DNA from: a virus
Lineage: Duplodnaviria; Heunggongvirae; Uroviricota; Caudoviricetes
Length of the DNA: 64,000 bases
IMG/VR virus record: IMGVR_UViG_3300035682_000012
Location: 6,073 to 70,072 of that record
Strand: one strand, 5' to 3'
Under the pieces are notes generated by a model. The model saw only the letters and a program-made list of their open reading frames with translations. It made no database searches and was not told the DNA's origin. Position 1 is the first letter of the stretch. Each line of letters opens with the position of its first letter. Of the stretch, positions 2,594 through 62,026 are shown in pieces. A program made the translations under genes and the position numbers.

Positions 2594-2895
2594 TTTGTTA
2601 AATTTTCTTTTGTTAAGATTTTATATAAAAGTTCAATTTCTTCTTCGGTTTCTAACATTGGTAAATTATCAAATAGGGTTATTAAATATTCACCTTCATT
2701 TATTTCCATAGCTTTCCACTCGTCACTTGCGATAGATATCATTGTAGGTCTATTAATAGTTTTAAGCTCATCACCATTGGGTAGTGGTATAATCCAATAA
2801 TAATAATTATTTTCACCATCACTTTCTTCTATTTTAATTGCATTCCATCTTTTAAAAGAATGGTCGGTAATTGGTGTTTGTGGCATTGTTATCAT
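2590..2895 (-). CDS. hypothetical protein (101 aa)
   Basis: Minus-strand ORF, 4 bp overlap (ATGA) with its upstream neighbour. Confidence 0.5.
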   Translation of the reverse strand: MITMPQTPITDHSFKRWNAIKIEESDGENNYYYWIIPLPNGDELKTINRPTMISIASDEWKAMEINEGEYLITLFDNLPMLETEEEIELLYKILTKENLTK

Positions 2896-2919
2896 AAATC
2901 AAATATACAACTTTTTTTC

Positions 2920-3528
2920 CTAATCACAAATTATTCTAATAGATTTTTGTATTGAATCTATTTTTACATCTGAAAATAATTTTGAGTTTGGTATTTCAAT
3001 TGTGAATTTTGCTTTTCCTATAATTGTAATCGTATCACCTTTCATTTTATATATTGGTGCACCCATTGTATTTACCTCACCTGAAAAATATCCTAATTGT
3101 GATGTACCATTTACAATAGGAATTAATTCATCTTTTTGATTAATTAATGTCGGCAATTGTGATATTTGTAATTGACCGGTGTATGGATTAAAATAGGTTT
3201 TAACGATACTACCAACCGAATCACCGGCTTTTAAAAGCCAATAGTGAGAACTACTCCATTCTATTCTACCTGTAACAGGTGAAGGTATTTGATTAGGTTT
3301 ACCATCTACTAAAAATTTACCAGTAATTCTACTTAACGTTTGATTTGTTGTTGTAGATAATACTAAATGATAAAATCCATTATTATCCAATAATAAACTT
3401 TGTTTACCATTTGAATTTAATGCTGAATCAATTGTAAATGAAATAGTGTGTTGTGGTGGAATAGGTGTAACAATATCTTTATTACACGAACATAGTAAAA
3501 CTATGCCAATTAAGGATAAAATCTTCAT
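2920..3528 (-). CDS. predicted lipoprotein (signal peptide + lipobox 'LLCSCNKD')
   Basis: N-terminus MKILSLIGIVLLCSC; promoter-like motif AAAGATACGA 27 nt upstream. Confidence 0.55.
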   Translation of the reverse strand: MKILSLIGIVLLCSCNKDIVTPIPPQHTISFTIDSALNSNGKQSLLLDNNGFYHLVLSTTTNQTLSRITGKFLVDGKPNQIPSPVTGRIEWSSSHYWLLKAGDSVGSIVKTYFNPYTGQLQISQLPTLINQKDELIPIVNGTSQLGYFSGEVNTMGAPIYKMKGDTITIIGKAKFTIEIPNSKLFSDVKIDSIQKSIRIICD

Positions 3529-3553
3529 ATCTTAGGGTTTAATGTTTATACTT

Positions 3554-3563
3554 AAAGATACGA
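3554..3563 (-). promoter_or_regulatory. promoter-like motif AAAGATACGA (TCGTATCTTT on the coding strand)
   Basis: 27 nt upstream of the ATG at 3528; same motif at 25716, 29257, 32276, 45554, 53937, 62027 and variants at 1415, 19131, 19864, 60004. Confidence 0.5.
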
Positions 3564-3583
3564 AATTATTAGGACTTTACCAA

Positions 3584-4360
3584 TTATTTTAGAATATTTG
3601 TTGTAATTAATTGATTATTAACAAGATATGTATATAATTTTTTTGAATATTCTTTATTATGTATGTATCCTGGATGTGCACCATCAATACCATAATCTAT
3701 AAATGGATAAAATTCACCATCAAATCTATTATTATCATTATAATCATTAGTTGCATACCATCCATTCCAAACCCAATTACATTGTTTTGATTCTAAAAAT
3801 AATTTTATTAATTGATGGTTTTTATACCAATTGATAAAATTGTTTGATTTATTTAATAAAGTAAGATGTGCATTATGTTCATTTACACCATTTTCGGTTT
3901 CTTTAAAATACCCCCAACTTTTATGGTGGAATGGTTCTATACCACCTTCATTGGTATAAAATTCTCGTCTATGTGATTCGGTATACATAATTAAAACTAA
4001 ATCAGGTTTTACTAAATCGTAATATGTCATCAAACAACGGGTGATATAATCATTACTTCTACCACCACATCCGAAATTTAAATCAACTCCATTTGGTATT
4101 AATTTACACAATTGATGTGACCATGTTTCGTTATCATTTACACCAACTCCCTCAGTAATAGAACAACCTAATGACATTACCTTAAACCCTTCTTTTTTTA
4201 TACTAGCTCCTCTAAACCCCAATTCATTATAAGTGTAAGTGCAATTTCCTGTAATATCTGAACCCGAATCTTTATATGTTTGATTAACTCTTTCACTTAA
4301 ATTGTTTCTAAACGATGATATTTCAAATCCTTCAGGATTCCAATATTCTAATGGTTTCAT
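3584..4360 (-). CDS. SGNH-like hydrolase, paralog 2
   Basis: 'VMSLGCSITEGVGV' (block I), 'GCGGRSNDY', C-terminal 'DGAHPGYIH' (DxxH). Confidence 0.5.
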   Translation of the reverse strand: MKPLEYWNPEGFEISSFRNNLSERVNQTYKDSGSDITGNCTYTYNELGFRGASIKKEGFKVMSLGCSITEGVGVNDNETWSHQLCKLIPNGVDLNFGCGGRSNDYITRCLMTYYDLVKPDLVLIMYTESHRREFYTNEGGIEPFHHKSWGYFKETENGVNEHNAHLTLLNKSNNFINWYKNHQLIKLFLESKQCNWVWNGWYATNDYNDNNRFDGEFYPFIDYGIDGAHPGYIHNKEYSKKLYTYLVNNQLITTNILK

Positions 4361-4914
4361 ATTAATTTATCTATTTTAAATTCTTTCTCTAATGTTGTAC
4401 AATATATACTCATTTCTCTAATTTCAATTTCCTGAGGTTGTTTTATTAACCAATTTATCATTTTTGCAAGATTTTCAGTATCTAATTTATTTAAACTTTC
4501 AAACCCCGTATGTGTTGATAGTGTAGATGGATATAAATTTATAACTCTAACTTTTTTATTTTTATAATTTGTAATGGTATTTAAAGATACTTTTTTTAAT
4601 TCTTTTTTATTATTTGCATATTCAGGAGACCAATCGGATGAATGATAAACACAACTACTATTCATATTAATAATTGTTTTTGGTAAAAATTTCCATTTGT
4701 CAAAAATTAATTCAAATAATATTGTTTGATAATTTTTTTCATATGCGTTGTTTATAAAAACATCACAATTTTCTAATTGTTCAATAATTTTATTTGGGGT
4801 TTTTATATTAAAACCATTACTTCTACTAAATCCTATAACATCGTATTCTTTTATTAAATTTAAATAAATATCATTTCCAATTCCCTCTGAGTGGCCTGTG
4901 ATTGCAATTTTCAT
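4357..4914 (-). CDS. short-chain dehydrogenase/reductase-like NAD(P)-binding protein
   Basis: N-terminal Rossmann motif 'MKIAITGHSEGIGNDI' (TGxxxGIG); 185 aa. Confidence 0.5.
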   Translation of the reverse strand: MKIAITGHSEGIGNDIYLNLIKEYDVIGFSRSNGFNIKTPNKIIEQLENCDVFINNAYEKNYQTILFELIFDKWKFLPKTIINMNSSCVYHSSDWSPEYANNKKELKKVSLNTITNYKNKKVRVINLYPSTLSTHTGFESLNKLDTENLAKMINWLIKQPQEIEIREMSIYCTTLEKEFKIDKLI

Positions 4915-5432
4915 ATTAGTGACGTTTTTGGGAAATCTAAATTATTAATATGTAAAAATCCAATTATACTCCATCTTTCACCTTTTATTATTTTTTTTAC
5001 TTCATGCATTCTTTGACTAGGAAAAGTATATATGTTACCTGTTTCTTTTGGTAATTGTTCTTTTGGATTATATAAAACAAATTCTCCTCCATCATAATCA
5101 TTGTTTAAACATACTCCCACATTGTGTATTTGTGTTTTATAATATGTGTCGGTGTGTTTTTCAAATTGTTGGCCTTCAATATATTTGTGTATGTATATTT
5201 TATCTAATTCTTTTTTTATTTTTAAATTAGTTTTATTTGTAAAATACATGTGAATTTTATCAAATACCCATTGAGTTTTTTCGTTTCTATTAATTAACCA
5301 CACATCATAGTTTACCTTAAAAGTTTTATCATTATTGGAATATTCATGTTTACCAAAAGAATCTAATTGTTCTAATTCCTTTGATAAATTGATTATGTAA
5401 GTACATTCCTCTTTACTAAATACGATTTTCAT
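4911..5432 (-). CDS. 2OG-Fe(II) oxygenase superfamily protein
   Basis: 'FEKHTDTYY' (HxD) ... 'RMHEVKKIIKGERWSIIGF' (distal His plus 2OG-binding Arg). Confidence 0.55.
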   Translation of the reverse strand: MKIVFSKEECTYIINLSKELEQLDSFGKHEYSNNDKTFKVNYDVWLINRNEKTQWVFDKIHMYFTNKTNLKIKKELDKIYIHKYIEGQQFEKHTDTYYKTQIHNVGVCLNNDYDGGEFVLYNPKEQLPKETGNIYTFPSQRMHEVKKIIKGERWSIIGFLHINNLDFPKTSLI

Positions 5433-6607
5433 TAAATTAAAGTTTTAGGAATTGTTAAATTTTGAACATCACATATTTTATTTAAAAAAAGTTCTTTATA
5501 TATTTGTTTTCTATATTGAAAATCAAAATATAATTTTTGATTAAATTTACATATATCCAAAACCTCTTTACTATTATAAACATTTGATAATTCTAATGCA
5601 CTATCTATAATTTTTTTTATTTTATCTTTACCATTCATTTCATCATAATCCTCGTTGATTACTGAATTAAATGTTTTAAATCCCATATCTCTTAATGTTT
5701 TAAGATAGTGTTTTGATGGCGCATATATAACAAAGGGAACGCCTAAATAAATTGGTTTCCATGTTTTTTCCGTAATATGAATTCTATTGTCATATAACAT
5801 CGTTTCACTTATAATATTAACTTTACTTTGATAATACCAGTTTGGATTTATTATATGTAAATTCTCTTCCTGCATAATTACATCAGTAGTGTATGATACA
5901 TCATCTTCCAATTGAATTGATTTAAAAGCATTTACGTCTATATTGTATTCTAATATCAATTCTTTATTTATATTATTGATGGATACGAAATTCTTTATCC
6001 AAGTAAATCTGGTATCATTTAGTAATCCCCTATTATACAATTCTTCAATAATTTTATATTTTTTATCAGTCATTCTTCTATTTAAACATAAGAATTTTTT
6101 ATTAGGTATTGTTTTATTATTGGTTACAATATCTTTAATATATTTGTTTAGGTTATCATATGTTGCTAAGAAAAAATGTGGAAAAAATAAAGTATTCAAT
6201 ACAAATTTATCATATTTTATTTTGTGAAACCCAACTTTAGAAAAATCATTGTTTATAACAATTAATTTATTAATATCAAATTTATTATTGTTTAATATAT
6301 TAAGAAACTTTGAAAATACTTCATCTTTAAAAAGCTCGGCCTCGCCTCCATCTGCAATAAAATAAAAATTTTTACTTTGTAATTTAGTTAACAATGCTAT
6401 AAATTCAATAGAATGTGTATGTGCTGTGTTTTTATTATGTGGAACCGTCCATTCGTTTTCTAATAAAAAAACTAAAAAATTTAATTTTGTAGTGTCTATG
6501 GTATTGGTATCAATATTATTGAATAAGATACTATTATCTATTTTTTCAATTGAATTTCTAATGTTTGTATTTGGTAGAATATCACTATACCAAAATTGAA
6601 TTTTCAT
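5432..6607 (-). CDS. GT10-family (alpha-1,3-fucosyltransferase-like) glycosyltransferase, paralog
   Basis: 'VNIISETMLYDNRIHITEKTWKPIYLGVPFVIYAP' matches the FucT motif 'FENS..DY[IV]TEK.W....G.VPVV'. Confidence 0.55.
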   Translation of the reverse strand: MKIQFWYSDILPNTNIRNSIEKIDNSILFNNIDTNTIDTTKLNFLVFLLENEWTVPHNKNTAHTHSIEFIALLTKLQSKNFYFIADGGEAELFKDEVFSKFLNILNNNKFDINKLIVINNDFSKVGFHKIKYDKFVLNTLFFPHFFLATYDNLNKYIKDIVTNNKTIPNKKFLCLNRRMTDKKYKIIEELYNRGLLNDTRFTWIKNFVSINNINKELILEYNIDVNAFKSIQLEDDVSYTTDVIMQEENLHIINPNWYYQSKVNIISETMLYDNRIHITEKTWKPIYLGVPFVIYAPSKHYLKTLRDMGFKTFNSVINEDYDEMNGKDKIKKIIDSALELSNVYNSKEVLDICKFNQKLYFDFQYRKQIYKELFLNKICDVQNLTIPKTLI

Positions 6608-7651
6608 TTATATTAAAGTTTTATTTGTAGTATCAATAAACTCATATAAATTATGGAATAGATTTTGATTTTTCCATATTTTATTAAATTCTTTTTTAAA
6701 TAATTCATGTTCCGGATGTTCCGTATCCCATACCTGTTTTAATTTGAATTCACCCTCAGAAAATGTTCCCCAATTAGTTATCTTACCAAAAAACACATTT
6801 ACTTTTTTACCAAAAATAGAATACATTAAATTATAAAATGTTTCCATCTCCATATAGTTACTATCTTGTACAACAAAAGATGTCTTTACACTTATTTTTG
6901 GTAAGGTATTAATGAATTTTAAATTGTTCATTAAGTTTTCCCAATTACCACCTATCCTTGTTTTATTTTCATATGTGTCTTTAGTCCCAGCATCTATACT
7001 AATTTCACAACTTGTTACATATTTGTGCACATTTGGCATACTATCCCACATTTCTTTATTCCACATAGATGCGTTTGTATGTAAATGTATTCTTACTAAT
7101 TGAGGATATTTTTTAGGATTAAAATTTCTTAAATAGTTTCTAAATCCAACTGAAACAAATGGGTCTCCTGAACCTGTAATGTATAAAGTTTTCACGTGTT
7201 TTGAATAATATGTATCAATATCTTCAATCGTTTTTTCAACTCGCTTTATACCTTCACTATTTTCAACAATCAAATCAACTCTACATGATGGACATTTGTA
7301 ATTACAAGTTCTATCGAAATTCATTACCAAATATTCAGGTGTATTATTTTTTATAATTGGACTATTAATGTTTGAATTTGATTTTAAAATAACTGGGCCT
7401 GATGTCACTCCAAAATTTACTAATTTATTTAAATAAGGACAAAGCTCTTTACTACAATATTTAAACGAACCGTCTAAAATAGAATTTCTAATATCTACAA
7501 CCGGTTTACTATTATAAACATCTTTTAGTGGTATTTCACTAAGTTCTACTTTGTTTGATAACCAAGATGGACAACAAACAAAACAAACATTATTATGTAT
7601 TTCTAATGAGGTGAATGGTACGTTACATGTATAATTTTTTAAATCTACCAT
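6608..7651 (-). CDS. radical SAM enzyme
   Basis: 'CNYKCPSC' (CX3CX2C) followed by 'YITGSGDPF' glycine-rich SAM motif; extra N-terminal Cys cluster. Confidence 0.7.
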   Translation of the reverse strand: MVDLKNYTCNVPFTSLEIHNNVCFVCCPSWLSNKVELSEIPLKDVYNSKPVVDIRNSILDGSFKYCSKELCPYLNKLVNFGVTSGPVILKSNSNINSPIIKNNTPEYLVMNFDRTCNYKCPSCRVDLIVENSEGIKRVEKTIEDIDTYYSKHVKTLYITGSGDPFVSVGFRNYLRNFNPKKYPQLVRIHLHTNASMWNKEMWDSMPNVHKYVTSCEISIDAGTKDTYENKTRIGGNWENLMNNLKFINTLPKISVKTSFVVQDSNYMEMETFYNLMYSIFGKKVNVFFGKITNWGTFSEGEFKLKQVWDTEHPEHELFKKEFNKIWKNQNLFHNLYEFIDTTNKTLI

Positions 7652-7704
7652 AATATAGTATCACAAAAATCATTTGTTAATATCTTTTTATATATTGTCA
7701 TATA

Positions 7705-8397
7705 CTATATTAATTGGTTTCTTTTCTCAAATGGTTTTTCAAATTTTTCCCAAACAAACGATTTTAATTCATCATTTATTATTAATTTATTTGTTCTTTT
7801 TGTTGATTTGTTTTTATTTTCTAATATCAATCTTTCACCAAATTTATTTTCAATAAAATCTACAAATTTATCTATGTCTTTAATATCAAACTCATATGTA
7901 CATTTTTTATTACTTTTCCAATATTGTTCAGAAATCAATGTGGTACTAATTAATAAGTTAGGCATATTGTTAATTTCTACTAATTTCTCTTGTCCCGGTT
8001 TTAAAAAATTGTTAATACATTTTAAAGTTCCGGTTTCTGTTGCTAAATGTAAATTATTAATAAAATTATTGTCAAATATGGTATAAATAATTTCGTTAGT
8101 TAAATCTTCCCATTTACATATTGGTTCAAATGGAAGTTCATATTCAATTATATCCCAAATATGGTTTATTGAACTCAACCATTTATCAAACCAATCTCTA
8201 GTAATACACACACTTTCTTTATTTCCAAAATATTTTAAAGATGCATCTAACGATACGTGAATATGTTTATTATGTGTTGATTCTCTATGGTATTTTTCTG
8301 ATTTTATTTTAGAATCTAATATTGCGTTTTCTATTGAAACACTAGCACACTTAGGTGTAATTATCCATATAATATTATCATTTATTAAATAAGACAT
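7705..8397 (-). CDS. sulfotransferase-like protein (tentative)
   Basis: 'IITPKCASVSI' resembles the 5'-PSB P-loop (PK.G[ST]T); 'ITRDWFDKWLSS' resembles the 3'-PB RDP.xR..S motif. Confidence 0.4.
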   Translation of the reverse strand: MSYLINDNIIWIITPKCASVSIENAILDSKIKSEKYHRESTHNKHIHVSLDASLKYFGNKESVCITRDWFDKWLSSINHIWDIIEYELPFEPICKWEDLTNEIIYTIFDNNFINNLHLATETGTLKCINNFLKPGQEKLVEINNMPNLLISTTLISEQYWKSNKKCTYEFDIKDIDKFVDFIENKFGERLILENKNKSTKRTNKLIINDELKSFVWEKFEKPFEKRNQLI

Positions 8398-8399
8398 TA

Positions 8400-8717
8400 T
8401 TATAACATTGTTTTATTGTTTTTAGAATTAGTGATATATCCATATTTAATAAAATGTTCTGTTTCTACATCCTTCCACTTATGTAATGGACATGAACCTT
8501 TTTTATCTAAATGTGTTTTTTTAGTATATACTTTTGCGGATAGTGGACATCCACATTGACCACATTTTAATGACCACTCTTTTCCATTTAAAATTTCCTG
8601 TTTATGTGGACACGTTATACATATTGCAAATCTATTATCTGCTAATTCCTTTTGTTCTGGTGTATGATTTATTTTACTATACCACGCACCTATAATTTCT
8701 TTAAAATCTAATTTCAT
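8400..8717 (-). CDS. Cys-rich zinc-binding protein (105 aa)
   Basis: 'CITCPHK ... CGQCGCPL ... CPLH' cysteine clusters. Confidence 0.5.
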   Translation of the reverse strand: MKLDFKEIIGAWYSKINHTPEQKELADNRFAICITCPHKQEILNGKEWSLKCGQCGCPLSAKVYTKKTHLDKKGSCPLHKWKDVETEHFIKYGYITNSKNNKTML

Positions 8718-8718
8718 A

Positions 8719-9300
8719 TTATAATAATGTTTTTTTGTAATCTTTTTTTTCTATCAATTTTACCCAATTAACTAAAGTATAACGAGTGCCACTTTTTATC
8801 ATCTGTACCCTATGTTCAATATTAGATAAAAATAGTATTAAATTACCCGTACCCTTTTCAATTGTTAATATTTCATTTTTTTCATCTTTTATTTGTAAAT
8901 CACCTTCTTTATAATCATCATTTAATTGTATTACTAATGAACAATATCTATCATAATCTGATACCTTATCTTCAATCACATCTTTGTGCCAATTAAAATG
9001 TCCACCCGGATGATATTCAGTAAACTGAAATTGACTTTCTTCAAAATCTAAATCAAACCCCTTAACAAAAATATGTTTATTTAATAATTTACTCATTTTT
9101 TCTAATAAAAATGGAAATTTTTTATAGTATGGGTAAAATACTTGATTTGATTTTCTAACATCTGTGTTAATATTATCGTCCATATAATCGGTAACAATTT
9201 TTGATGGGACTAATTCTAATTCTTTTAATGAAAAATCTAATATCTGATTACATTCTTCTTTTGTTAAGAAGGTGGGTTCTATTGTATATGTAAATGCCAT
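8719..9300 (-). CDS. 2OG-Fe(II) oxygenase (prolyl 4-hydroxylase-like)
   Basis: 'YHPGGHFNWHKDV' (HxD) ... 'IEHRV' second His. Confidence 0.6.
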   Translation of the reverse strand: MAFTYTIEPTFLTKEECNQILDFSLKELELVPSKIVTDYMDDNINTDVRKSNQVFYPYYKKFPFLLEKMSKLLNKHIFVKGFDLDFEESQFQFTEYHPGGHFNWHKDVIEDKVSDYDRYCSLVIQLNDDYKEGDLQIKDEKNEILTIEKGTGNLILFLSNIEHRVQMIKSGTRYTLVNWVKLIEKKDYKKTLL

Positions 9301-9312
9301 AACTTATTTATA

Positions 9313-9843
9313 TTATAATAATGATTTTGTTTTTTTGGTGTTATAGTTAACCGGCATCCAATGTAAAAAAAATTGTAACACTCTTTCATTTTCATTACAA
9401 ATTAATATGTCTCTCCAATGTATTGTTTTATCCGCATCAAATAATAGGATACCATCGCCTGCATTTATATTAAAACAATGTGGTTGGTTATTAATTTCCG
9501 CACAAATGGGCCATTCTTTATCAATAGTGGATTCTAAACATATAGACATTGTAACACTAATATCCGTTCTATCTATGTGTTTTTCTAAATAAGAATTATT
9601 TTTATATTGTCTAACATATGTGTTAACATTTGTTAAATCATCTATATTACAATTAATTTCTAAAATTTTTGATTTTAACGTATCCAAATATGTGTTGAAT
9701 ATGTACGAAGGTTCGAATCCATACGAATAACCAGTATCTTTTGGTATATCAAAAGAAGCGTTAATCTTTTTTTCAATATCGAATTGGTTTGTAAGATTAA
9801 TACATTCTTCTTTTGTTAATATACCTTTTATAAGGTGTATCAT
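9313..9843 (-). CDS. probable 2OG-Fe(II) oxygenase-like protein
   Basis: 'LEKHIDRTD' (HxD) and a later 'IHWRD'; adjacent to another oxygenase. Confidence 0.4.
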   Translation of the reverse strand: MIHLIKGILTKEECINLTNQFDIEKKINASFDIPKDTGYSYGFEPSYIFNTYLDTLKSKILEINCNIDDLTNVNTYVRQYKNNSYLEKHIDRTDISVTMSICLESTIDKEWPICAEINNQPHCFNINAGDGILLFDADKTIHWRDILICNENERVLQFFLHWMPVNYNTKKTKSLL

Positions 9844-10014
9844 ATAACTAATTATTAGATGATTATTAAATCACTATGAGTTTGCGATTACTATTAAATT
9901 ACCAATTGTTGTCATTGTGGTATTTAAAGTATTGATGTCTGTATTTGATATTATGTTTGCCATTTTATTTTATTTTATACTATATTAATATATTTTTTTA
10001 GTTGATTCTTTTTA

Positions 10015-11505
10015 TTAGCAGGTGAATGAAACACACGTGCTGTAATAACAATACGGGTCATTTTTAGGACACGATTCACATGCGCTATAACAGGAACTAC
10101 ACGCCGCCCCCGGACAAGATACTGAATTATGTTCTATTGAAACGTATGATTGGTTATTGGTTGAACCCGTTGTTTTTGTTAGAAATAACATAGCCTTATC
10201 AACCGAAATAAACCATCCTGAAAATACTCGTTTGGATTGTATATTAGATACTATCGTTTTTCTTACAAACGAAATATTACCATCAGTTGTATCTAATAAT
10301 AATACCACATCACCCGCTATTAAATTAAATAAAGCGTGAAACACAACTATACCTTCTCTTTCTATTAAATATCTTGAACCCATAGTATCTTCCCAAGTAC
10401 TATTATCTTCAAATGTTAGTGTATTTAAAAAAGTTAAAACATTTACTTTTTGTTTATTAGTAACAATATTATTAGAATAAATTGCGGTTGATGCTAATGT
10501 ATTATAGTCTAATGAACCAAATGTATTTGTTATATACCTATCAATGTTAAGTCCATTTTCATTTGGTATCTCTATTGTTTTAATAACGTCACCAATCTGC
10601 AATTCTAATGCGGTTTTAAATGTACCATCGGATAGTTCAACTTCATCGGTATCTACTAATTTAGGTAACCATGGTGTATTTGCCACTGTGTTATAGCTTG
10701 ATTTAAAGTTTGTATCTACTTCAAATGTAGTTGAATTATATGTTACATTATCTAATAACATATTTTGATTTAATTTTGTATATTGTCCTATTTGAATTGA
10801 CTCTAATGTTGCTGGATATAAAATATTTAAACTTCTTAATACAAACGAATGTCCCTCCCATTTTTTAGTAGGGTTATATAGATATTCCATTAAAAAATAA
10901 TCAGATGTTACGTTTTCTAATACTACATCTAATTCTGTTTGATTTGATACTTTATAAAATTTAGGATATTGTTCTTTATCATATCCCGGATATCTAGCTT
11001 TTAAAATAAAATTAGGATGCTCTCCATTATCATTAATATTTGTAATATTATTAACTAATGTGTTTGATTCATTCATATATGCAAATTGTGAACCAAAGGT
11101 TGAATCCTTTATTAAATTCATAAAGTTCACTTTATCTCTACAATATGTATCATCTACTAATGCGGTTGTATCATATGCACTTCTAATAATTAAAGTTTCT
11201 GCATTATCATCAATATATGGAATAGTAATTGCCGATTCACCAACTATATGAAATGCGTATATTATACTATTATTATCACAATACGTTTTTAGTTTTGCAT
11301 CCAATTTTTCTAACTGTCCGATGTAATGAATAGATGTAAAATTATTGGCTTTAATAAACGCGTCAAGTGCTGTTAAATCTAAACAATCGATATCTTCTTC
11401 TACTTTTTCAGGGCCATCCCAACCTACCGCTGTATTGATTTCAATTGGTTTTAAATTACCATCTTTGTCGTACATAAAGTCCGAACCTATTAATACTGTT
11501 CTCAT
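10015..11505 (-). CDS. hypothetical protein with Cys-rich C-terminus (496 aa)
   Basis: Long clean ORF; C-terminal 'SCPGAACSSCYSACESCPKNDPYCYYSTCVSFTC'. Confidence 0.55.
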   Translation of the reverse strand: MRTVLIGSDFMYDKDGNLKPIEINTAVGWDGPEKVEEDIDCLDLTALDAFIKANNFTSIHYIGQLEKLDAKLKTYCDNNSIIYAFHIVGESAITIPYIDDNAETLIIRSAYDTTALVDDTYCRDKVNFMNLIKDSTFGSQFAYMNESNTLVNNITNINDNGEHPNFILKARYPGYDKEQYPKFYKVSNQTELDVVLENVTSDYFLMEYLYNPTKKWEGHSFVLRSLNILYPATLESIQIGQYTKLNQNMLLDNVTYNSTTFEVDTNFKSSYNTVANTPWLPKLVDTDEVELSDGTFKTALELQIGDVIKTIEIPNENGLNIDRYITNTFGSLDYNTLASTAIYSNNIVTNKQKVNVLTFLNTLTFEDNSTWEDTMGSRYLIEREGIVVFHALFNLIAGDVVLLLDTTDGNISFVRKTIVSNIQSKRVFSGWFISVDKAMLFLTKTTGSTNNQSYVSIEHNSVSCPGAACSSCYSACESCPKNDPYCYYSTCVSFTC

Positions 11506-11541
11506 AATTTTATTTTTTCCTTATTATTTCTTATAAATATA

Positions 11542-11934
11542 CTAACTTTGTAATTTAGTAGTTCTTTTAGTATATTTTCTTTTTGGTTTTGGTAGCGATG
11601 AATTATCAATAGATGTGATTAAATCCCTTATTGCACCACATTGTTCGTATTGCTCTTTAGATACAAAGTAATCCATCATTTTATTTAGAAGGTCCTTATA
11701 TTCACTCTTATCGATAGTAGCAAACATTTTACTATCGGTGAACTTAATGATAGCAACTTCTTCTAAATTTTCTTCAATTGCACCTTTTAATATTTGTAAA
11801 ATCCAGGGATATAAGGTATCACCATTCATAGAAATATAGTTAGAAACAGCGGGAGATGCATCTTCATCAAAGTATTTTCTCCAATTAGTTTTTGCGTACA
11901 TATCGGTAATTTTTAATAATTTGTTAATATCCAT
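11542..11934 (-). CDS. hypothetical protein (130 aa)
   Basis: Minus-strand ORF. Confidence 0.5.
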   Translation of the reverse strand: MDINKLLKITDMYAKTNWRKYFDEDASPAVSNYISMNGDTLYPWILQILKGAIEENLEEVAIIKFTDSKMFATIDKSEYKDLLNKMMDYFVSKEQYEQCGAIRDLITSIDNSSLPKPKRKYTKRTTKLQS

Positions 11935-11944
11935 GTATAACTAT

Positions 11945-35461: not shown

Positions 35462-35478
35462 TATTTAGTATTAATATA

Positions 35479-35745: not shown

Positions 35746-35780
35746 TTTGTTTTGTTTTATATAAATATATGTTTTTATTA

Positions 35781-36512
35781 TTACAATGTAACTACACCAC
35801 GTTTTTGTACAACTTTTGTTGCACAATCATTTGCGTATTCAATACTAACTTCTATACTTTTTGTTTTTAAATAACTAACTACTAATGAAGCCATAAAGGT
35901 ATCACCTGCACCACTCAAATCTCTAACCTCAATATCGTTGTTAACCGGATATGTAATACCATCATACATTGCACCTCGTTCACTCATTGTTATAATTAAT
36001 CTTTCTCGCCACATTTCGTATTCCTGTCCTTTACAATTTTCCCACTCAACTTCATTTATCTTAATGAATGTATAATTACGCATTTCTGCTGATAATGGTT
36101 TCTTTGTATCTATAAAAGTTAATGGATGTGAATCACTAATCAATTTCAAATCTGATAATGATAGAAATCCTTTGTCATAATCACTTACAATAACTGCATC
36201 ATAATCATTGAATGGAACTCTTTTTACATCAAATGAATTACTAACCTTATCATTACTATCAATTCTGATAATCATATGATTTGCTTTTTCCTCTACATAT
36301 CTAGTCTTTGTAATTTGTTCTTTGTTAGTAACCAACTCAACTTTCTCAGCTCCCAACGATTTAAGATTAGCTACTACATTACCACTCATACCCATATTGG
36401 TAATTGTTCTACTCGGTTCAAATATTGGCACAGGTCCTTCGGGACATAATCTTTTACAATAACCATATACAAATACATCAGTACAACTATCACCGATAAC
36501 TAAAACTTTCAT
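35781..36512 (-). CDS. pfkB-family carbohydrate kinase (HldE/RfaE kinase-domain-like)
   Basis: N-terminal 'KVLVIGDSCTDVF ... PEGPVPI' and C-terminal 'DLSGAGDTFMASLV' pfkB signature. Confidence 0.65.
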   Translation of the reverse strand: MKVLVIGDSCTDVFVYGYCKRLCPEGPVPIFEPSRTITNMGMSGNVVANLKSLGAEKVELVTNKEQITKTRYVEEKANHMIIRIDSNDKVSNSFDVKRVPFNDYDAVIVSDYDKGFLSLSDLKLISDSHPLTFIDTKKPLSAEMRNYTFIKINEVEWENCKGQEYEMWRERLIITMSERGAMYDGITYPVNNDIEVRDLSGAGDTFMASLVVSYLKTKSIEVSIEYANDCATKVVQKRGVVTL

Positions 36513-36568
36513 AATAACGATTTCCTATAAGTATTAATATGTTCAAAAAAATGATTAGCCATTCGTTG
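36508..36568. repeat. 61 bp direct repeat (copy 1), spanning the end and junction of SGNH paralogs
   Basis: 'ttcataataacgatttcctataagtattaatatGttcaaaaaaatgattagccattcgttg', identical except for one base to 37271..37331. Confidence 0.7.
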
Positions 36569-37282
36569 GTTAAACTTTTTTAGTATTTCTACTGACATGA
36601 TTTGTTGTCCTTTTACACCAATATGTCCATCTTGCATCTTACCATTACTTTCATCGGAAATAGTTGCTTTGTGTTCTTTGAAACAATCCTCTCCACCTAT
36701 ATATTTGTTCTCAAATTTAAGAAAGTATGGTTTTTTTAGAATTTCAATTTCATGTATATTTGGAGAATCTGGAGATTCTAAACACCAAAATACAACATTT
36801 TTTGTTTTTAGTAAATTTATTAATTTTTCAAATCTATTAAGTTGTCTGTGTTTGTATGCCGGTAATCCTGCAAAATAAACTGCAAAATCTACTAATGTTT
36901 CGTGTTTATGGTCAGTCATATCATCATCACCTATTAAGTTTACGTTAATATGTCTACTATCATCATATCTAACAATTGTATGTAAAAAACTAAATGAGCT
37001 TTTGTGTGGAACATCAAATCTACTATAATATGTAGCTTGGATTACAACATAATCGTTTTCTCCAATCTTATCTGCGTTATTTAAAATGTTGTCCAATATA
37101 TAGTCATTGGATGCACCTACTCTAGCGTGATTATGTAGTTCCAAATTTAATTCATGTGCTACTATTTCACACCAATATCTTTTATCAATATCATCGGATA
37201 AAGTAACTTCATAGAATGGGTCAGAATTATTAAAGCCGTGCCCATGTGAAAAACTATCACCGAAAATCCATAACTTATTCAT
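36509..37282 (-). CDS. SGNH/GDSL-like hydrolase, paralog 7
   Basis: 'WIFGDSFSHGHG' block I; 'DGHIGVKGQ'; C-terminal 'MANHFFEHINTYRKSLL' shared with paralog 8. Confidence 0.65.
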   Translation of the reverse strand: MNKLWIFGDSFSHGHGFNNSDPFYEVTLSDDIDKRYWCEIVAHELNLELHNHARVGASNDYILDNILNNADKIGENDYVVIQATYYSRFDVPHKSSFSFLHTIVRYDDSRHINVNLIGDDDMTDHKHETLVDFAVYFAGLPAYKHRQLNRFEKLINLLKTKNVVFWCLESPDSPNIHEIEILKKPYFLKFENKYIGGEDCFKEHKATISDESNGKMQDGHIGVKGQQIMSVEILKKFNQRMANHFFEHINTYRKSLL

Positions 37283-37331
37283 AATAACGATTTCCTATAA
37301 GTATTAATATATTCAAAAAAATGATTAGCCA
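37271..37331. repeat. 61 bp direct repeat (copy 2)
   Basis: See copy 1; encodes the shared C-terminus '...MANHFFE[HY]INTYRKSLL' plus the gene junction. Confidence 0.7.
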
Positions 37332-37950
37332 TTCGTTGATGTCCTAACTCATTAAAATGTTTATCAATATTACCATTCGGTTCTATAATATGTTGTTCCT
37401 CTAATTGGTCTTGCCACTTTGTATAAAACGAATAGTTTGTAAATTCGTTTGTTGAATTGGGTGCAGGTATAAAAGTAATAATCTCTTTGTATTTTTTAAA
37501 ATCTGAATGAACTTGTCCTTCTGCACTCCAATAGTAAATTGATATTTTTTTTTTAATACACCAATTGTTTACTTGTTTATTAAACCAATTATAATTAACC
37601 TTCCTCATTTCTACTAAATTATCTGCAAATGTTCCACCATTAGAATGTCTACTAAAATAAGCTTCTAAATCTATTAATTGTGCTTTTGTTGGATAAATAT
37701 TATACCTATCAAAGAATGTAAATTCAAATACAACCTTATCGCCTGGCTGAATTTCATCTCTCCTATCTATGAATTGCAATATAGATACCCAATTACATTG
37801 TCCAGGACGTGCACTATTTACTAATTCTAAATCTAATTTATCCGCCAATACATACGGCCAACTAATTCTTAATGTATCTTCATCAGTAGGTTGAATCAAA
37901 TTCATTCCGGTTGAAAACGAACAGCCAAATACCCAAAGTTTATTTTTCAT
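37279..37950 (-). CDS. SGNH/GDSL-like hydrolase, paralog 8
   Basis: 'WVFGCSFSTGMN'; C-terminal 'GHQRMANHFFEYINTYRKSLL'. Confidence 0.6.
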   Translation of the reverse strand: MKNKLWVFGCSFSTGMNLIQPTDEDTLRISWPYVLADKLDLELVNSARPGQCNWVSILQFIDRRDEIQPGDKVVFEFTFFDRYNIYPTKAQLIDLEAYFSRHSNGGTFADNLVEMRKVNYNWFNKQVNNWCIKKKISIYYWSAEGQVHSDFKKYKEIITFIPAPNSTNEFTNYSFYTKWQDQLEEQHIIEPNGNIDKHFNELGHQRMANHFFEYINTYRKSLL

Positions 37951-40309: not shown

Positions 40310-41521
40310 TTAATTAAATGTTTTAGTTATAGGGTCTTGTTTCCAATGATATATTTTTCCATTTATAGTAATACCATCTAAATAATAAACATTATCTTTC
40401 TGATATAAATTTAATTTGGACATCCATGCTTTTGAATTAGTTTGATATGTTATAATATTGTTTTCTTTAAACGTTTTATAATTATCAGTTGTTTTATACA
40501 CACTTAATTGAAATCCATTATACCAATTAGTACCACTATCGATTGTTCTATTTAATATTATTTCAGTTGTACCATCATTATCGATGTCGGCTGCTACAAT
40601 ATCCAATACCAATGCCCATCCATTTATATTTGGTTCACATATAATTGTATTGTTACTAAATTCATTATTATTATTCCAAAATATAGTAGATTTAGAATAC
40701 CTATCTGAATTTGGGAATCCTTCAAACCCAGTCATTATAATATCCAATTGATTATCTTCATTTACATCTAATATTTCAATTGTTAAATAACCGGATGCTC
40801 CTTTATATTTCCAATCGGTTGCATTAAAACTACCATTGCCACTACCATATAAAACTTTAATGCTATTTCCGGCAGTTACAACGATATCAATATTACCATC
40901 TTTATTTAAGTCACCACTTGCTCCCCCATGCCAAAAGGATTTACCAATATCAGGTAATGTTCCTATTTTATATTTGCCTGTTTTTTTGTCACTTAATAAC
41001 AATGTGTTGTTTTCGCCTGGCCAATAGTTATTACTTTCATATCCATGATTACATAAAAACAAATCCGGTAAACTATCATTATTAAAATCACCAACAATTG
41101 TTTTTCTTGTTGTTTGATTACCGGTGTAGTCACTCGGTAACATACTATTATCACTAATATATGTTTTACCTTTATTTATAAACACATCTGGTTTTGAATT
41201 AAATTCGCCATCCGATGTGTATGGATAAAAAATATCTTCTAATCCATCGTTATTCATATCTACATATACCCAACCATTATTACTATTACCATTGTATTTT
41301 CCAATATTCCTAATACCAAGGTTTGTTCTAAGTGAATCAATATTGATAAAGTTTTTTGTATTTTTTAATTCATATGATGTCTTACCATAATATATAATTT
41401 TTGGTAATTCAGTCGGTGTTAATACAATCGGTGTTACTACAATTGGTGGTATCACACTCGGTATAGTTTTATTACAACTAACCGCTATAACTAATATAAT
41501 TCCTAATACTATATTTTTCAT
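40310..41521 (-). CDS. exported FG-GAP/VCBS-repeat (integrin-alpha-like beta-propeller) lipoprotein
   Basis: Signal peptide plus 'AVSCNKT' lipobox; repeated 'DxNxDGxxD' blades (DMNNDGLEDIF, DFNNDSLPDLF, DLNKDGNIDIV, DVNEDNQLDII, DIDNDGTTEII). Confidence 0.6.
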   Translation of the reverse strand: MKNIVLGIILVIAVSCNKTIPSVIPPIVVTPIVLTPTELPKIIYYGKTSYELKNTKNFINIDSLRTNLGIRNIGKYNGNSNNGWVYVDMNNDGLEDIFYPYTSDGEFNSKPDVFINKGKTYISDNSMLPSDYTGNQTTRKTIVGDFNNDSLPDLFLCNHGYESNNYWPGENNTLLLSDKKTGKYKIGTLPDIGKSFWHGGASGDLNKDGNIDIVVTAGNSIKVLYGSGNGSFNATDWKYKGASGYLTIEILDVNEDNQLDIIMTGFEGFPNSDRYSKSTIFWNNNNEFSNNTIICEPNINGWALVLDIVAADIDNDGTTEIILNRTIDSGTNWYNGFQLSVYKTTDNYKTFKENNIITYQTNSKAWMSKLNLYQKDNVYYLDGITINGKIYHWKQDPITKTFN

Positions 41522-42078
41522 ATCATTTTATTATTATTACGATACCTGTTATTATTATTTAACAATTCACTTGCTTTTAAATTATTAACATCTATATTTA
41601 GATATTCACATAATTTTTTAAGTTCGGTTTTTGTTTTAAAAATGCCTTCATATGTTATATGAAATGCATCTATACTAACGATATCTTTATTTTGTTTAAT
41701 AAATTCTCTTTCTATTCTATGTATTTCATATATTCTGTCTGAAATCCATTTATCATTTATTTTATATTTTGAATGATAATCATAATTTGGTTTTTCATCA
41801 CAATATAATAAACTAACTGCACTATCAAATGTATCAGTACGTGTTAGTGTTATTACTTTATCAAACTTTGATATATAATTTGGTATATCTTTAATATGAT
41901 GATGTATTTCTTTAACAATAAAGTTATTACTATTTAACTCAAACTCAACCGGAAATAGTGGATTATGTAATTCGTTTATTGTTTTGTACCCCAACTCTAT
42001 TCCCAACCATTTTAATAAAGTTGTAGAACCACTCCTCATATTAGCAATAATTAATATTCTCATACTAATTTTTAACAA
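41518..42078 (-). CDS. sulfotransferase-family protein
   Basis: 'ILIIANMRSGSTTLLKWL' matches the PAPS 5'-phosphosulfate-binding P-loop ([PR]SGST.L). Confidence 0.5.
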   Translation of the reverse strand: MLKISMRILIIANMRSGSTTLLKWLGIELGYKTINELHNPLFPVEFELNSNNFIVKEIHHHIKDIPNYISKFDKVITLTRTDTFDSAVSLLYCDEKPNYDYHSKYKINDKWISDRIYEIHRIEREFIKQNKDIVSIDAFHITYEGIFKTKTELKKLCEYLNIDVNNLKASELLNNNNRYRNNNKMI

Positions 42079-61979: not shown

Positions 61980-62026
61980 AACTGAATTTTTAATGTTTAT
62001 TGTTTAATTATTGTTTGATATATCAT

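Follow-up and report, generated by a model that had tools for sequence, protein, structure and literature searches.

What would a phage do with a radical-SAM enzyme, three 2OG oxygenases, a glycosyltransferase and a sulfotransferase packed end to end in its genome? The question is raised by a stretch of Caudoviricetes DNA from record IMGVR_UViG_3300035682_000012 (positions 6,073-70,072), whose 64,000 nt are referred to here as the window. A preliminary description placed a single modification cluster at 3584-9843, and considered its chemistry compatible either with the hydroxylation and glycosylation of peptides or with nucleoside and DNA hypermodification. The sequence supports one cluster, with synteny kept in about 80 related phage loci and a C-terminal tail common to eight of the nine proteins. 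As for the chemistry, the peptide or protein side fits best and the DNA side is not supported. With a probability of roughly one half, the locus would be an island for the post-translational tailoring of a phage protein, the shared tail acting as a docking tag.

ORF inspection of 3584-9843 gives nine consecutive minus-strand genes with tight junctions, one fewer than previously counted (Table 1). The tight spacing said to couple them is real, but the "several" ATGA overlaps come down to two, at g1/g2 and g2/g3. Next along, g3 and g4 overlap by one base (TAATG), g4 and g5 abut, g5 and g6 are 53 nt apart, and gaps of 2, 1 and 12 nt separate g6/g7, g7/g8 and g8/g9. The shared direction of these genes is uninformative, since the minus strand carries every sizeable ORF of the window. 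Their clustering does exceed chance, because synteny is kept in 80 IMG/VR loci as well as in several metagenome contigs. The island also has the lowest G+C content in the window (24%, against 28-35% elsewhere). Its first limits were too short, as a conserved micro-ORF and g10 belong to the same unit. These two genes and the shared tail are the three most informative features of the locus, and all were absent from the preliminary description.

Table 1. Genes of the island and related genes elsewhere in the window.
Gene	Coordinates	Strand	Length (aa)	Assignment	C-terminus
g1	3584..4360	-	258	SGNH/GDSL-type hydrolase or acyltransferase	NILK
g2	4357..4914	-	185	short classical SDR	DKLI
g3	4911..5432	-	173	2OG-Fe(II) oxygenase, P4H/PKHD type	TSLI
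g4	5432..6607	-	391	GT-B fold glycosyltransferase	KTLI
g5	6608..7651	-	347	radical-SAM enzyme	KTLI
g6	7705..8397	-	230	PAPS-type sulfotransferase-like protein (fold and motifs)	NQLI
g7	8400..8717	-	105	Cys-rich Zn-ribbon-like protein (CxxC...CxxCxC...CxxH)	KTML
g8	8719..9300	-	193	2OG-Fe(II) oxygenase, P4H/PKHD type	KTLL
g9	9313..9843	-	176	divergent 2OG-oxygenase-fold protein (HID...H)	KSLL
gS	9874..9963	-	29	micro-ORF conserved after g10, MANIISNTDINTLNTTMTTIGNLIVIANS	
g10	10015..11505	-	496	universal island anchor	no KTLI tail
two tail-bearing genes	36509..37950	-	257 and 223	SGNH protein and its paralogue	YRKSLL (both)
sulfotransferase	41518..42063	-	181	Stf0-like sulfotransferase homologue	NKMI

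Eight of the family assignments first proposed for the nine proteins hold, namely the radical-SAM enzyme, three 2OG oxygenases, the SDR, the SGNH protein, the sulfotransferase and the Zn-protein. Both g3 and g8 exceed the PF13640 cut-off, with 44 and 54.6 bits; g3 also matches NCBIfam PKHD and YhhC-like models below cut-off, with PiuC/Sbal_3634 as its PDB matches, and g8 matches PiuC (E 1.4e-4). Taken together, the Pfam, NCBIfam and PDB matches place these oxygenases in the P4H/PKHD type, leaving out TET/JBP and AlkB. The third oxygenase, g9, has no match in a Pfam search, but it carries the HxD...H motif, and its family aligns with that of g3 and g8 at an hhalign probability of 95%; it also matches phrog_2954 and phrog_3531. 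The radical-SAM enzyme g5 is identified by its CNYKCPSC motif (CX3CX2C at C116/C120/C123) and by PF04055 at 33.4 bits (cut-off 29.5). It has five invariant N-terminal cysteines (C9, C26, C27, C66 and C71) as well as C215. Its subfamily matches all lie below cut-off among the NCBIfam models (N_Twi_rSAM reaches 60.5 bits, cut-off 170), with no known maturase subfamily detected and no relative of solved structure found. No other gene of the island is as conserved: identity is 79-88% over the 120 best clusters.

For g1, a weak Lipase_GDSL_2 match, the motifs GCSITEG and DGAHPG (the GCS...DxxH pattern) and an hhalign probability of 96.9% to SGNH paralogues agree on the SGNH family. The SDR g2 has the TGxxxGIG, NNA and YxxxK motifs, with adh_short just under cut-off (24.5 bits). 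The fold and motifs of g6 are those of PAPS-type sulfotransferases, and the best fold matches are carbohydrate enzymes, the heparan-sulfate sulfotransferases. Only g4 had been described too closely: it belongs to no Pfam family, and of the label "FucT-like" what stands is a generic GT-B glycosyltransferase fold and nothing more specific. Both g2 and g4 occur in a minority of related islands, g4 standing alone in one 320-kb contig, while g7 is found in most of them, often directly upstream of g10.

In the 80 IMG/VR loci, the typical order runs from g10 and the micro-ORF through a variable set of 2OG, Zn-ribbon, sulfotransferase and SGNH genes to the radical-SAM gene, an Stf0-like sulfotransferase, a 2OG oxygenase and an SGNH gene. 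The order g10...rSAM...2OG...SGNH is maintained across 51-92% rSAM identity. The islands of relatives add APS kinase, carbamoyltransferase and large glycosyltransferases; relatives further carry GT4+Methyltransf_21, GT9, DUF5672, an Asp/Arg-hydroxylase paralogue and a weak, below cut-off SET-domain match. Directly after the island in relatives come collagen-like, Ser/Thr-rich tail-fibre genes with 30-43 G-[TS]-[SN] triplets; the island of this window has no tail-fibre gene as a neighbour. The locus is best read as a reduced version of a conserved, compositionally variable island of tailoring enzymes that belongs to a lineage of large, uncultured freshwater myophages.

The proteins of the island are linked by their last residues. 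A K-[T/S]-L-[I/L]-COOH tail ends eight of the nine cluster proteins but only 3 of the 109 other ORFs of the window (Fisher p = 2e-9). The exception is g1, and even so 61% of its homologues in other loci have the tail. Across the 80 related loci, at least 19 unrelated enzyme families carry it, each at a frequency of about 60-100%, and over 423 distinct gene ends the motif reads K53%/N20%, T37%/S19%, L74% and I71%. Selection acts on the protein and not on the DNA, as codon usage shows: the tail leucine is encoded as leucine is in the gene bodies. The bearers are oxygenases, sulfotransferases, SGNH proteins, glycosyltransferases, SDRs and radical-SAM enzymes, and neighbouring housekeeping, structural and PAPS-supply genes have no tail. 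In both AF2 models the enzyme tails are disordered. Tail-bearing genes also occur 26-32 kb from the island. The YRKSLL pair adjoins a PfkB-family sugar kinase gene, and the Stf0-like homologue shares 35% identity with the family found after the radical-SAM gene in most related islands. In the literature on this type of gene cluster, no description of such an enzyme tail or of a Hint/Cys-rich partner was found.

That partner is g10, located upstream of the radical-SAM gene in all 35 related loci with at least 9 kb of sequence upstream of that gene. In its N-terminal domain, D9, E22, N24, R108, D118 and R224 are invariant and K169 nearly so; at the motif level only, this domain may be ATP-grasp-like, a likeness that hhalign does not support statistically (probability <1%). 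From about residue 282 to 460 extends a putative Hint/BIL-like domain with an F/G-like block ("...FLT...IEHN") closing in the invariant H459-N460. Its profile matches to BIL/Hint and intein structures are weak (E 0.004-0.03), as is the PT-HINT match of a distant homologue, under the Pfam cut-off. Cleavage also stays putative, since this first Hint domain has no N-terminal Cys/Ser nucleophile; the TxxH block is absent too. The protein ends here in a hypervariable Cys-rich tail of 36 aa. Such tails have 25-50 aa and 5-8 Cys, with a recurrent C-P-K-x-x-P-x-C or CWCxWxYCGNWC, and in close pairs they are only 65% identical, against 89% for the body. In four loci, one to three canonical Hint domains (Cys1 to HN) take the place of the tail, and a distant homologue with BACON domains adjoins a tail sheath gene. 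The class of Cys-rich tail co-varies with enzyme set and gene order, g9 for instance co-occurring with the CPKxxPxC class. After g10, every related locus examined has a micro-ORF of 24-50 aa, in which differences fall mainly at third codon positions (291/257/1038) and synonymous codon differences outnumber non-synonymous ones (804 vs 440).

Peptide or protein chemistry fits these data best because the oxygenases are of a P4H/PKHD type, because relatives have an Asp/Arg-hydroxylase paralogue, a possible SET domain, sulfotransferases and APS kinase, because the anchor of the island, g10, is a Hint-domain protein whose Cys-rich end is hypervariable, and because collagen-like fibres abut the island in relatives. 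The prime candidate substrate would be the hypervariable, Cys/Tyr/Pro-rich C-terminal module of g10. As this module comes directly after a Hint-type domain whose terminal His-Asn is invariant, Asn cyclisation could probably release or expose it. The collagen-like fibres of relatives would be the second candidate. The 2OG oxygenases would hydroxylate Pro, Lys, Asp or Asn side chains, the radical-SAM enzyme with its N-terminal auxiliary cluster might then introduce a cross-link or an epimerisation, the sulfotransferase would place sulfate on the new hydroxyls or on Tyr, the GT-B enzyme would add a sugar, and the SGNH and SDR enzymes would complete the decoration. The exposed tail would gather these interchangeable enzymes at one hub, most likely g10, as it is the only universal, tail-less partner. 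Against protein tailoring count the carbohydrate-like sulfotransferase folds, the weak Hint matches, the unsupported ATP-grasp likeness, the lack of an adjoining tail-fibre gene in this window and the fact that neither a RiPP recognition element (RRE) nor a known maturase subfamily was detected.

The same carbohydrate-like folds lend some weight to a pathway that would make an unusual sulfated, acylated or carbamoylated sugar or oligosaccharide for the virion (fibres or capsid) or the host envelope, with the 2OG, radical-SAM and SDR enzymes acting on sugar intermediates and the tail assembling a metabolon. The GT-B fold of g4, the Stf0 (trehalose sulfotransferase) family and the SGNH paralogues agree with it, as do the APS kinase and DUF5672 of relatives; their carbamoyltransferase, GT4+Methyltransf_21 and GT9, together with the PfkB kinase of the window, are no less compatible with glycan chemistry than with protein tailoring, and the adjoining Ser/Thr-rich fibres are plausible O-glycan acceptors. 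Yet the island yielded no nucleotide-sugar synthase, dehydratase, epimerase, aminotransferase, flippase or polymerase, its SDR is of the classical and not the extended NDP-sugar type, the glycosyltransferase is optional, and oxygenases of the P4H/PKHD and Asp/Arg-hydroxylase types typically act on peptides. As g10, its Hint domain and Cys-rich tail and the micro-ORF are also left unexplained, a glycan pathway is possible but doubtful. A diffusible small molecule, such as a hydroxylated or sulfated compound, is an unlikely product: enzyme content is indeed variable, and PMC2938197 gave this reading to the diverse 2OG oxygenases that cyanophages carry in tandem, but scaffold-forming enzymes (NRPS, PKS, terpene or amino-acid pathway genes) are absent, g10 and the micro-ORF are always linked to the island, and tail fibres adjoin the island in relatives.

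Could the island have no common pathway at all? Its highly variable content, its low G+C and the distant tail-bearing genes would suit a hyperplastic collection of unrelated auxiliary genes. The tail would then be a regulatory signal, marking proteins for a protease of the host or phage (a C-terminal degron) or directing their targeting or packaging. With basic residues before a hydrophobic C-terminus, it is similar to the signals recognised by ClpX in MuA-type substrates and to class-I PDZ ligands, and a degron or targeting signal would explain the KTLI tail as well as docking does. Such a collection is nonetheless quite improbable, given that the tail marks coherent chemistries, sparing the neighbouring genes, and that the core gene order is so widely kept. 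Hypermodification of DNA, with oxygenases, radical-SAM enzyme and glycosyltransferase decorating phage bases and the tail drawing them to a hub of the replisome, for example the sliding clamp, is very improbable. Clamp clients do carry C-terminal hub-binding motifs, and the lone g4 homologue of the 320-kb contig lies near DNA-metabolism genes; otherwise the sole argument is the generic GT-B likeness of g4 to T4 BGT/AGT, which are missing from its viral fold matches. The oxygenases are of the wrong type, and the scanned subset of window ORFs contains no hydroxymethylase, hmC/hmU synthase, thymidylate-synthase homologue, DNA methyltransferase, kinase, DpdA-type or DNA-binding partner. To our knowledge, sulfotransferases, SGNH enzymes, SET domains and carbamoyltransferases have no precedent in DNA modification.

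Protein tailoring of the kind proposed here has partial parallels. Like RiPP pathways (proteusins/polytheonamides, SCIFF/ranthipeptides), the island sets a gene-encoded, variable Cys-rich C-terminal segment next to a putative SPASM/twitch-group radical-SAM enzyme and 2OG hydroxylases, the putative core varying more than the remaining protein. Where a RiPP leader is a short peptide removed by a protease, that of g10 would comprise two domains over 460 aa, the last of them a Hint domain; moreover, the island has no detected RRE, its radical-SAM auxiliary cysteines are N-terminal, and the recognition tag would sit on the enzymes instead of the substrate. The BIL and pretoxin-HINT domains of polymorphic toxins and variable surface proteins likewise place a Hint-type domain with terminal His-Asn directly before a hypervariable module, and some g10 relatives have tandem canonical copies. 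In g10, by contrast, the first Hint domain lacks the nucleophile and TxxH block, the place of the toxin domain is taken by a short Cys-rich peptide (in distant homologues, by BACON domains), and the context is a phage enzyme island. Very short exposed C-terminal motifs on many unrelated proteins are known from PTS1 (SKL-COOH), beta-clamp-binding motifs, MuA-type ClpX signals and class-I PDZ ligands (S/T-x-hydrophobic-COOH, which K-T-L-I formally fits), but the present motif marks the tailoring enzymes of one phage island, with a putative docking role. Chlorovirus capsid glycans, the mimivirus collagen hydroxylase/glucosyltransferase L230 and the collagen-like O-glycosylation of Bacillus BclA recall the virus-encoded hydroxylases, glycosyltransferases and methyltransferases near collagen-like surface fibres. 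The phage G-[TS]-[SN] repeats differ in having no Pro or Lys, and those systems have nothing that corresponds to sulfation, radical-SAM chemistry, the Hint/Cys-rich protein or the enzyme tail.

The general kind of system was already predicted in 2010, with co-encoded collagen-like or phage tail-collar proteins expected to be hydroxylated first and sulfated afterwards (Iyer, Abhiman, de Souza and Aravind, 2010, NAR; PMC2938197). The predicted dioxygenase-sulfotransferase-PAPS synthetase operons and the cyanophage tandem 2OG-dioxygenase arrays of that article similarly join several unrelated 2OG oxygenases in tandem with sulfotransferases, methyl- and acyl-transferases and PAPS supply (APS kinase in the relatives here), are linked to fibre or collagen-like proteins, and follow the same predicted logic of hydroxylating, then decorating. 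In term searches of the article, the radical-SAM enzymes mentioned all lie in different gene neighbourhoods, and nothing like the Hint/Cys-rich partner, the micro-ORF or a tail common to the enzymes came up; cyanophage homologues of g8 (28-32% identity) also lack the tail. What the island suggests beyond that prediction is a way, so far undescribed, in which many enzymes may be brought to one viral protein substrate.

The island enzymes are encoded by nine consecutive ORFs, g1 to g9, where the preliminary description had counted ten. The mostly very tight junctions that it took as signs of translational coupling are present, although just two of them are ATGA overlaps; one pair overlaps at TAATG, another abuts exactly, three are separated by 1, 2 and 12 nt, and g5 and g6 by 53 nt. 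The shared orientation of the nine genes is uninformative because essentially every ORF in the 64-kb window lies on the minus strand, and a promoter and terminator scan of 2500-12500, with the same counts as shuffled sequence and no minus-strand terminator, says nothing for co-transcription. The G+C minimum of the window coincides with the island (24.0-24.7% over 4001-10000 vs. 28-35% elsewhere), which is consistent with a hyperplastic or exchanged region.

Apart from the gene count and the specificity of one glycosyltransferase, the identities first proposed for these genes are essentially right. The radical SAM (rSAM) enzyme g5 does contain CNYKCPSC and matches PF04055 with 33.4 bits (cut-off 29.5). 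In the rSAM alignment its cluster motif C116-x3-C120-x2-C123 is invariant, as are five more cysteines within the N-terminal 71 residues, which suggest an auxiliary cluster. It is by far the best-conserved island member (79-88% identity in the best 120 90%-clusters of 1,665 matches), and it scores above the cut-off of no named SPASM, twitch or NCBIfam subfamily, the best being N_Twi_rSAM (NF033640) with 60.5 bits against 170. PDB searches gave no solved relative of g5, its profile matching only the CNYKC motif of viperin, and PDB sequence searches with g4, g5, g6, g9 and g10 (the 496-aa protein that anchors the island) returned no significant match.

The 2OG oxygenases g3 and g8 match PF13640 with 44 and 54.6 bits (cut-off 27), with visible HxD...H triads, and so belong to the P4H/PKHD-like class, one of those proposed at the outset; among solved structures, PKHD-type hydroxylases such as PiuC come nearest to them. 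Matches to the other proposed classes, TET/JBP or AlkB, were found neither in Pfam and NCBIfam nor in the PDB sequence search. The third oxygenase, g9, also has the HxD...H motif and is joined to the g3/g8 family by profile comparison alone (hhalign probability 95%). Some of the PHROG families matched are labelled “DNA endonuclease” or “ferrochelatase,” although the region matched is the same 2OG domain. In particular, the “ferrochelatase” families 2954 and 3531 match the 2OG-oxygenase fold of g8 and g9 (8719-9843), and this label is probably an annotation error that has spread into phage records such as S-SCSM1. The sulfotransferase-like g6 is of the PAPS-dependent type, with a P-loop-like fold together with 5'-PSB (PKxxS/T) and 3'-PB (R-x7-S) motifs. 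Of the “FucT-like” label of g4, a generic, putative GT-B glycosyltransferase fold remains. The putative SDR g2 carries TGxxxGxG, NNAG and S...YxxxK, its adh_short match (24.5 bits, under the cut-off of 26.6) covering residues 80-136 only. The SGNH-type protein g1 has GCSITEG and DGAHPG motifs and 17.5 bits in Pfam (cut-off 32.9), and hhalign links it to SGNH paralogues in these phages with 96.9% probability. The small protein g7 is rich in cysteine and Zn-ribbon-like.

The window stems from an uncultured freshwater phage. JGI and ENA lake metagenome contigs carry rSAM proteins identical to its own, in the same gene order, and related contigs reach 335 kb. Neither megablast of the region nor tblastn of the rSAM enzyme and g10 found a match in 50,697 phage records, and a pattern scan with the rSAM alignment detected no relatives in 185,579 GTDB species genomes. 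Phage genes in the relatives include tail-fibre genes and, in one distant relative, a tail-sheath gene. Eighty IMG/VR loci were collected through the rSAM protein and their ORFs labelled by family, and they follow a common plan. It starts with g10 and a micro-ORF, continues with the Zn-ribbon protein, g6-type sulfotransferases, SGNH proteins and up to six 2OG oxygenase paralogues in varying combination, and ends with the rSAM gene, a 165-186 aa Stf0-like sulfotransferase (24.7 bits, cut-off 22), and a 2OG oxygenase with an SGNH protein. In each of the 35 loci whose sequence reaches 9 kb or more upstream of the rSAM gene, g10 is present; the GT-B and SDR genes g4 and g2 are found in a minority of the 80.

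Many relatives carry a further block upstream of g10 (carbamoyltransferase, APS kinase, a 127-aa HxGH protein and DUF2061) and downstream additions (a ~907-aa GT4+Methyltransf_21 protein, a 220-aa methyltransferase and a ~707-aa GT9 protein), none of which is present in the window. The trio of APS kinase, 127-aa protein and DUF2061 recurs in about 30 loci (L007:5309-6346 and equivalent sites) and might be a phage PAPS supply line; the GRWQNWHKGH motif of the 127-aa protein has what we take to be a nucleotidyltransferase- or ATP-sulfurylase-like look. In another relative, a NifU_N/IscU-like Fe-S scaffold gene (L003:13215-13616) lies a few genes downstream of the island, just past the point corresponding to the window's low-coordinate end, and could serve the radical SAM enzyme.

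What these otherwise unrelated enzymes share is their last four residues. The C-termini of g2 to g9 read, in order, DKLI, TSLI, KTLI, KTLI, NQLI, KTML, KTLL and KSLL, and the pattern [polar]-x-[LIM]-[LI]-COOH is found in 8 of the 9 cluster ORFs vs. 3 of the 109 other ORFs of the window (Fisher p = 2e-9), these three again encoding such enzymes (an Stf0-like sulfotransferase, an SGNH protein and the 223-aa paralogue of the latter). In the set of 80 loci, the tail is borne by 19 or more fold-unrelated families in about 60-100% of their members, including 2OG oxygenases, rSAM, two sulfotransferase families, GT-B, SDR, several SGNH families, Zn-ribbon, a SET-like family (weak match) and several unassigned ones. 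It is nearly lacking in the carbamoyltransferase (18% of members) and is missing from, among others, g10, APS kinase, the 127-aa protein, DUF2061, GT4-MT21, the 220-aa methyltransferase, the HD protein, Hsp20 and the fibre genes. The consensus drawn from 423 distinct gene ends is K (53%) or N (20%) at position -4 from the C-terminus, T (37%), S (19%) or K (17%) at -3, L (74%) or I (16%) at -2, and I (71%) or L (18%) at -1.

A nucleotide-level origin of the tail, as a translational-coupling signal, a -10-like element or a recombination micro-homology of the T4-hyperplastic type, was considered and rejected. The Leu codons at position -2 (TTA 70%, TTG 12%, CTA 11%, CTT 5%) match those of the gene bodies (68%, 13%, 8% and 8%), the tail is present on g6 despite the 53-nt gap that follows this gene, and different codons encode it in distant relatives. 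Selection therefore acts on the amino acids rather than on a ribosome-binding, promoter or recombination sequence. The tail is retained in homologues as distant as about 46% identity, is without order in both AlphaFold models and is absent from the cyanophage 2OG homologues checked. Its behaviour is that of a short linear motif recognized by a shared partner; the first candidate is g10, since no other island protein is both universal and tail-less. The alternatives are a protease degron and a targeting signal.

As a single sequence, g10 has no match in Pfam, PHROGs, NCBIfam or the PDB. A full HMMER search gave 255 cluster representatives, and the alignment of 40 homologues (23-51% identity) divides the protein into an N-domain, a Hint-pattern domain and a Cys-rich tail. 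In the N-domain, M1, D9, E22, N24, T25, R108, D118, P181 and R224 are invariant and K169 nearly so; its D9-x12-E22-x-N24 motif and DK...K...E...R spacing recall ATP-grasp enzymes. Homology to these has no statistical support: the motif aligns with residues 244-269 of E. coli RimK, yet the hhalign probability stays under 1%, also when a circular permutation is allowed for, so that the likeness is kept as a motif-level lead only. Weak RimK matches were seen in 2 of the 40 family members.

The Hint-pattern domain (~282-460) shows DG...GD.V and “...FLT...IEHN” features and ends in H459-N460, invariant in all 40 homologues, with the C-terminal His-Asn and block F/G typical of the fold. The g10 profile matches BIL/Hint and intein chains of the PDB weakly (E 0.004-0.03), and Pfam Hint, Hom_end_hint and PT-HINT match a few family members, also weakly (E 3e-4 to 0.02). 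Within the 40-member alignment, the start of this domain has neither a conserved Cys/Ser nucleophile (the window protein has K282) nor a TxxH block, which rules out a splicing intein and leaves at most C-terminal cleavage; judged from these residues, Asn-cyclisation cleavage is plausible as the sole remaining Hint activity. In four related loci (L068, L069 and L071, with g10 homologues of ~800 aa, and L089), the Cys-rich tail is swapped for one to three tandem canonical Hint or mini-intein-like domains, running from CF(V/I)xGT to HNxF(A/Y)AN(G/D/K)IL(V/T)HN, each with Cys at its start and HN at its end. Elsewhere, His-Asn is followed by 25-50 residues with 5-8 Cys, rich in Tyr, Trp and Pro, and close relatives that share 89% identity in the body share 65% in this tail. 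Two tail classes recur, ...C-P-K-x-x-P-x-C... (SCPKNDPYC in the window) and xCWCxWxYCGNWCYxxYCPTC, and they co-vary with enzyme set and gene order, with phylogeny as an uncorrected confounder. For example, g9 goes with the CPK class, and the g10 gene of the CWC class lies immediately before that for rSAM. Distant g10 homologues have BACON domains after His-Asn, one of them adjoining the tail-sheath gene.

Every related locus has an ORF of 24-50 aa directly after g10. Its C-terminal half is conserved as ..IGxLIVxxNS or ..AFxAVVxAIKxKHL, and 14 distinct DNA versions of the 29-aa type differ 291, 257 and 1038 times at codon positions 1, 2 and 3, with 804 synonymous vs. 440 non-synonymous differences. 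The substitutions mark the micro-ORF as a genuine gene whose coding sequence is under purifying selection. Of the marks of RiPP biosynthetic clusters, the island shows a Cys-rich hypervariable segment and a micro-ORF; neither an RRE nor a known maturase family was detected.

Features of the window and of related loci, with coordinates
Feature	Coordinates	Strand	Remarks
202-aa ORF	2920-3528	minus	just downstream of island; lipoprotein-like signal MKILSLIGIVLLCSC at start
g1 to g9	3584-9843	minus	consecutive ORFs of 258, 185, 173, 391, 347, 230, 105, 193 and 176 aa
Micro-ORF	9963-9874	minus	29 aa, between g10 and g9; encodes MANIISNTDINTLNTTMTTIGNLIVIANS
Adjacent paralogous ORFs, 397 and 428 aa	14559-17029	minus	one family by clustering
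Second carbohydrate-type locus	33285-37950	minus	SGNH paralogues and PfkB sugar kinase
SGNH paralogues of second locus	34730-35461, 36509-37282	minus	
PfkB-family sugar kinase	35781-36512	minus	
223-aa paralogue of second locus	37279-37950	minus	
403-aa FG-GAP-repeat protein	40310-41521	minus	translationally coupled to Stf0-like sulfotransferase
Stf0-like sulfotransferase	41518-42063	minus	ends NKMI
MoxR/CobS-like AAA ATPase beside CobT/VWA-like protein	60747-63930	minus	
Collagen-like fibre proteins of relatives	L019:18895-20922, L035:17297-19108, L045:9066-10547, L060:9971-11767		just downstream of island

In many relatives, tail-fibre genes come directly after the island; their PHROG matches include families of tail fibre, collagen-like minor tail and long-tail-fibre distal subunit proteins. 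In several of these fibres, 30-43 G-[TS]-[SN] triplets run without interruption and consist almost entirely of Gly, Thr, Ser and Asn (GTSGSNGSS...) without Pro or Lys. The window has no fibre genes beside its island, the downstream genes being the lipoprotein-like ORF, an HD phosphohydrolase and Hsp20; the position of the lipoprotein-like ORF is conserved in several relatives. Two genes of the second carbohydrate-type locus end in YRKSLL, a tail of the island-enzyme type, and the FG-GAP protein and its neighbouring sulfotransferase (40310-42063) could be another substrate-enzyme pair. The paralogues of 397 and 428 aa have no match in Pfam or PHROGs. The rest of the window includes, among others, a DNA ligase, an endonuclease, the MoxR/CobS-like ATPase, an SPFH protein and a GP88 protein. 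This ATPase is 51% identical to proteins of the cultured Microcystis phage Mel-JY01 and of a 484-kb uncultured, metagenomic phage, the nearest deposited phage genomes for any gene tested.

What, then, would such enzymes act on? At a probability of about 0.5, we read the island as a pathway for the post-translational tailoring of a phage protein. This reading is drawn from sequence comparison and favoured on two grounds: the island is obligatorily linked to a Hint-type protein whose end is Cys/Tyr/Pro-rich and hypervariable, and collagen-like fibres lie close by in relatives. The enzyme classes, namely P4H/PKHD and Asp/Arg-hydroxylase oxygenases, sulfotransferases with PAPS supply, methyl-, acyl- and glycosyl-transferases and rSAM enzymes of the SPASM/twitch group, are those by which peptide side chains, or the hydroxyls made on them, become decorated. 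The C-terminal module of g10 is the most specific candidate substrate and the fibres are the second. Of the chemistries entertained in the preliminary description, peptide or protein tailoring is thereby favoured, whereas DNA hypermodification, with no DNA-modification enzyme among the window ORFs scanned, is the least probable reading of all. A serious rival, if an unlikely one, is a pure glycan pathway, which fits the carbohydrate-type sulfotransferase matches, the carbamoyltransferase, GT4/GT9 and PfkB, but offers no explanation for g10 and the micro-ORF. It is improbable that the island makes a diffusible metabolite, and a shade more so that its genes are unrelated and carry a regulatory tail.

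A more specific form of protein tailoring, which we hold doubtful, is a new ribosomal-product tailoring system with a new recruitment principle, the tag being on the enzymes. The self-processing Hint protein g10 would present or release a hypervariable Cys-rich peptide, and the common K-T-L-I-COOH tag would recruit to it a “toolbelt” of interchangeable enzymes from at least 19 unrelated families. The product would be a hydroxylated, sulfated, glycosylated and cross-linked phage peptide or receptor-binding tip, diversifying with host range; in a bolder variant, the ATP-grasp-like N-domain of g10 would act on the C-terminal carboxylates of the tagged enzymes. RiPPs follow a leader-peptide logic, which would here be reversed, the tag being carried by the enzymes.

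Tandem 2OG-oxygenase arrays are among the commonest unexplained auxiliary genes of aquatic phages. In the passages found by term in their article, Iyer et al. described cyanophage arrays of up to ten tandem dioxygenases and predicted hydroxylation followed by sulfation of collagen-like or tail-collar proteins (Iyer et al., 2010, PMC2938197). The four components of the operons in those passages (2OG oxygenases, sulfotransferase, PAPS supply by APS kinase, and a fibre or collagen-like protein) are all present in island relatives, while the window itself has the oxygenases and sulfotransferases only. By that comparison, the present island is a phage version of the kind predicted, with additions that term searches of PMC2938197 did not turn up: an rSAM core enzyme, a Hint/Cys-rich anchor, a micro-ORF and a C-terminal tag. 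Literature searches on this cluster type in jumbo and freshwater phages and on phage RiPPs, not aimed at the tag, returned nothing specific, the island features being undescribed there.

The substrate question of the tandem arrays dates from 2010 or earlier, and the island makes it testable, since this lineage offers three handles: an obligatory partner with a concrete candidate substrate, its Cys-rich end; a conserved micro-ORF; and a C-terminal tag. The four-residue tag defines the pathway membership of genes wherever they are located in the genome; if it is a docking signal, it would be a simple and transferable principle for assembling multi-enzyme modification lines. If the g10 tail is the substrate, these phages would count among the makers of heavily modified ribosomal peptides, or would chemically diversify the tip of their virion.
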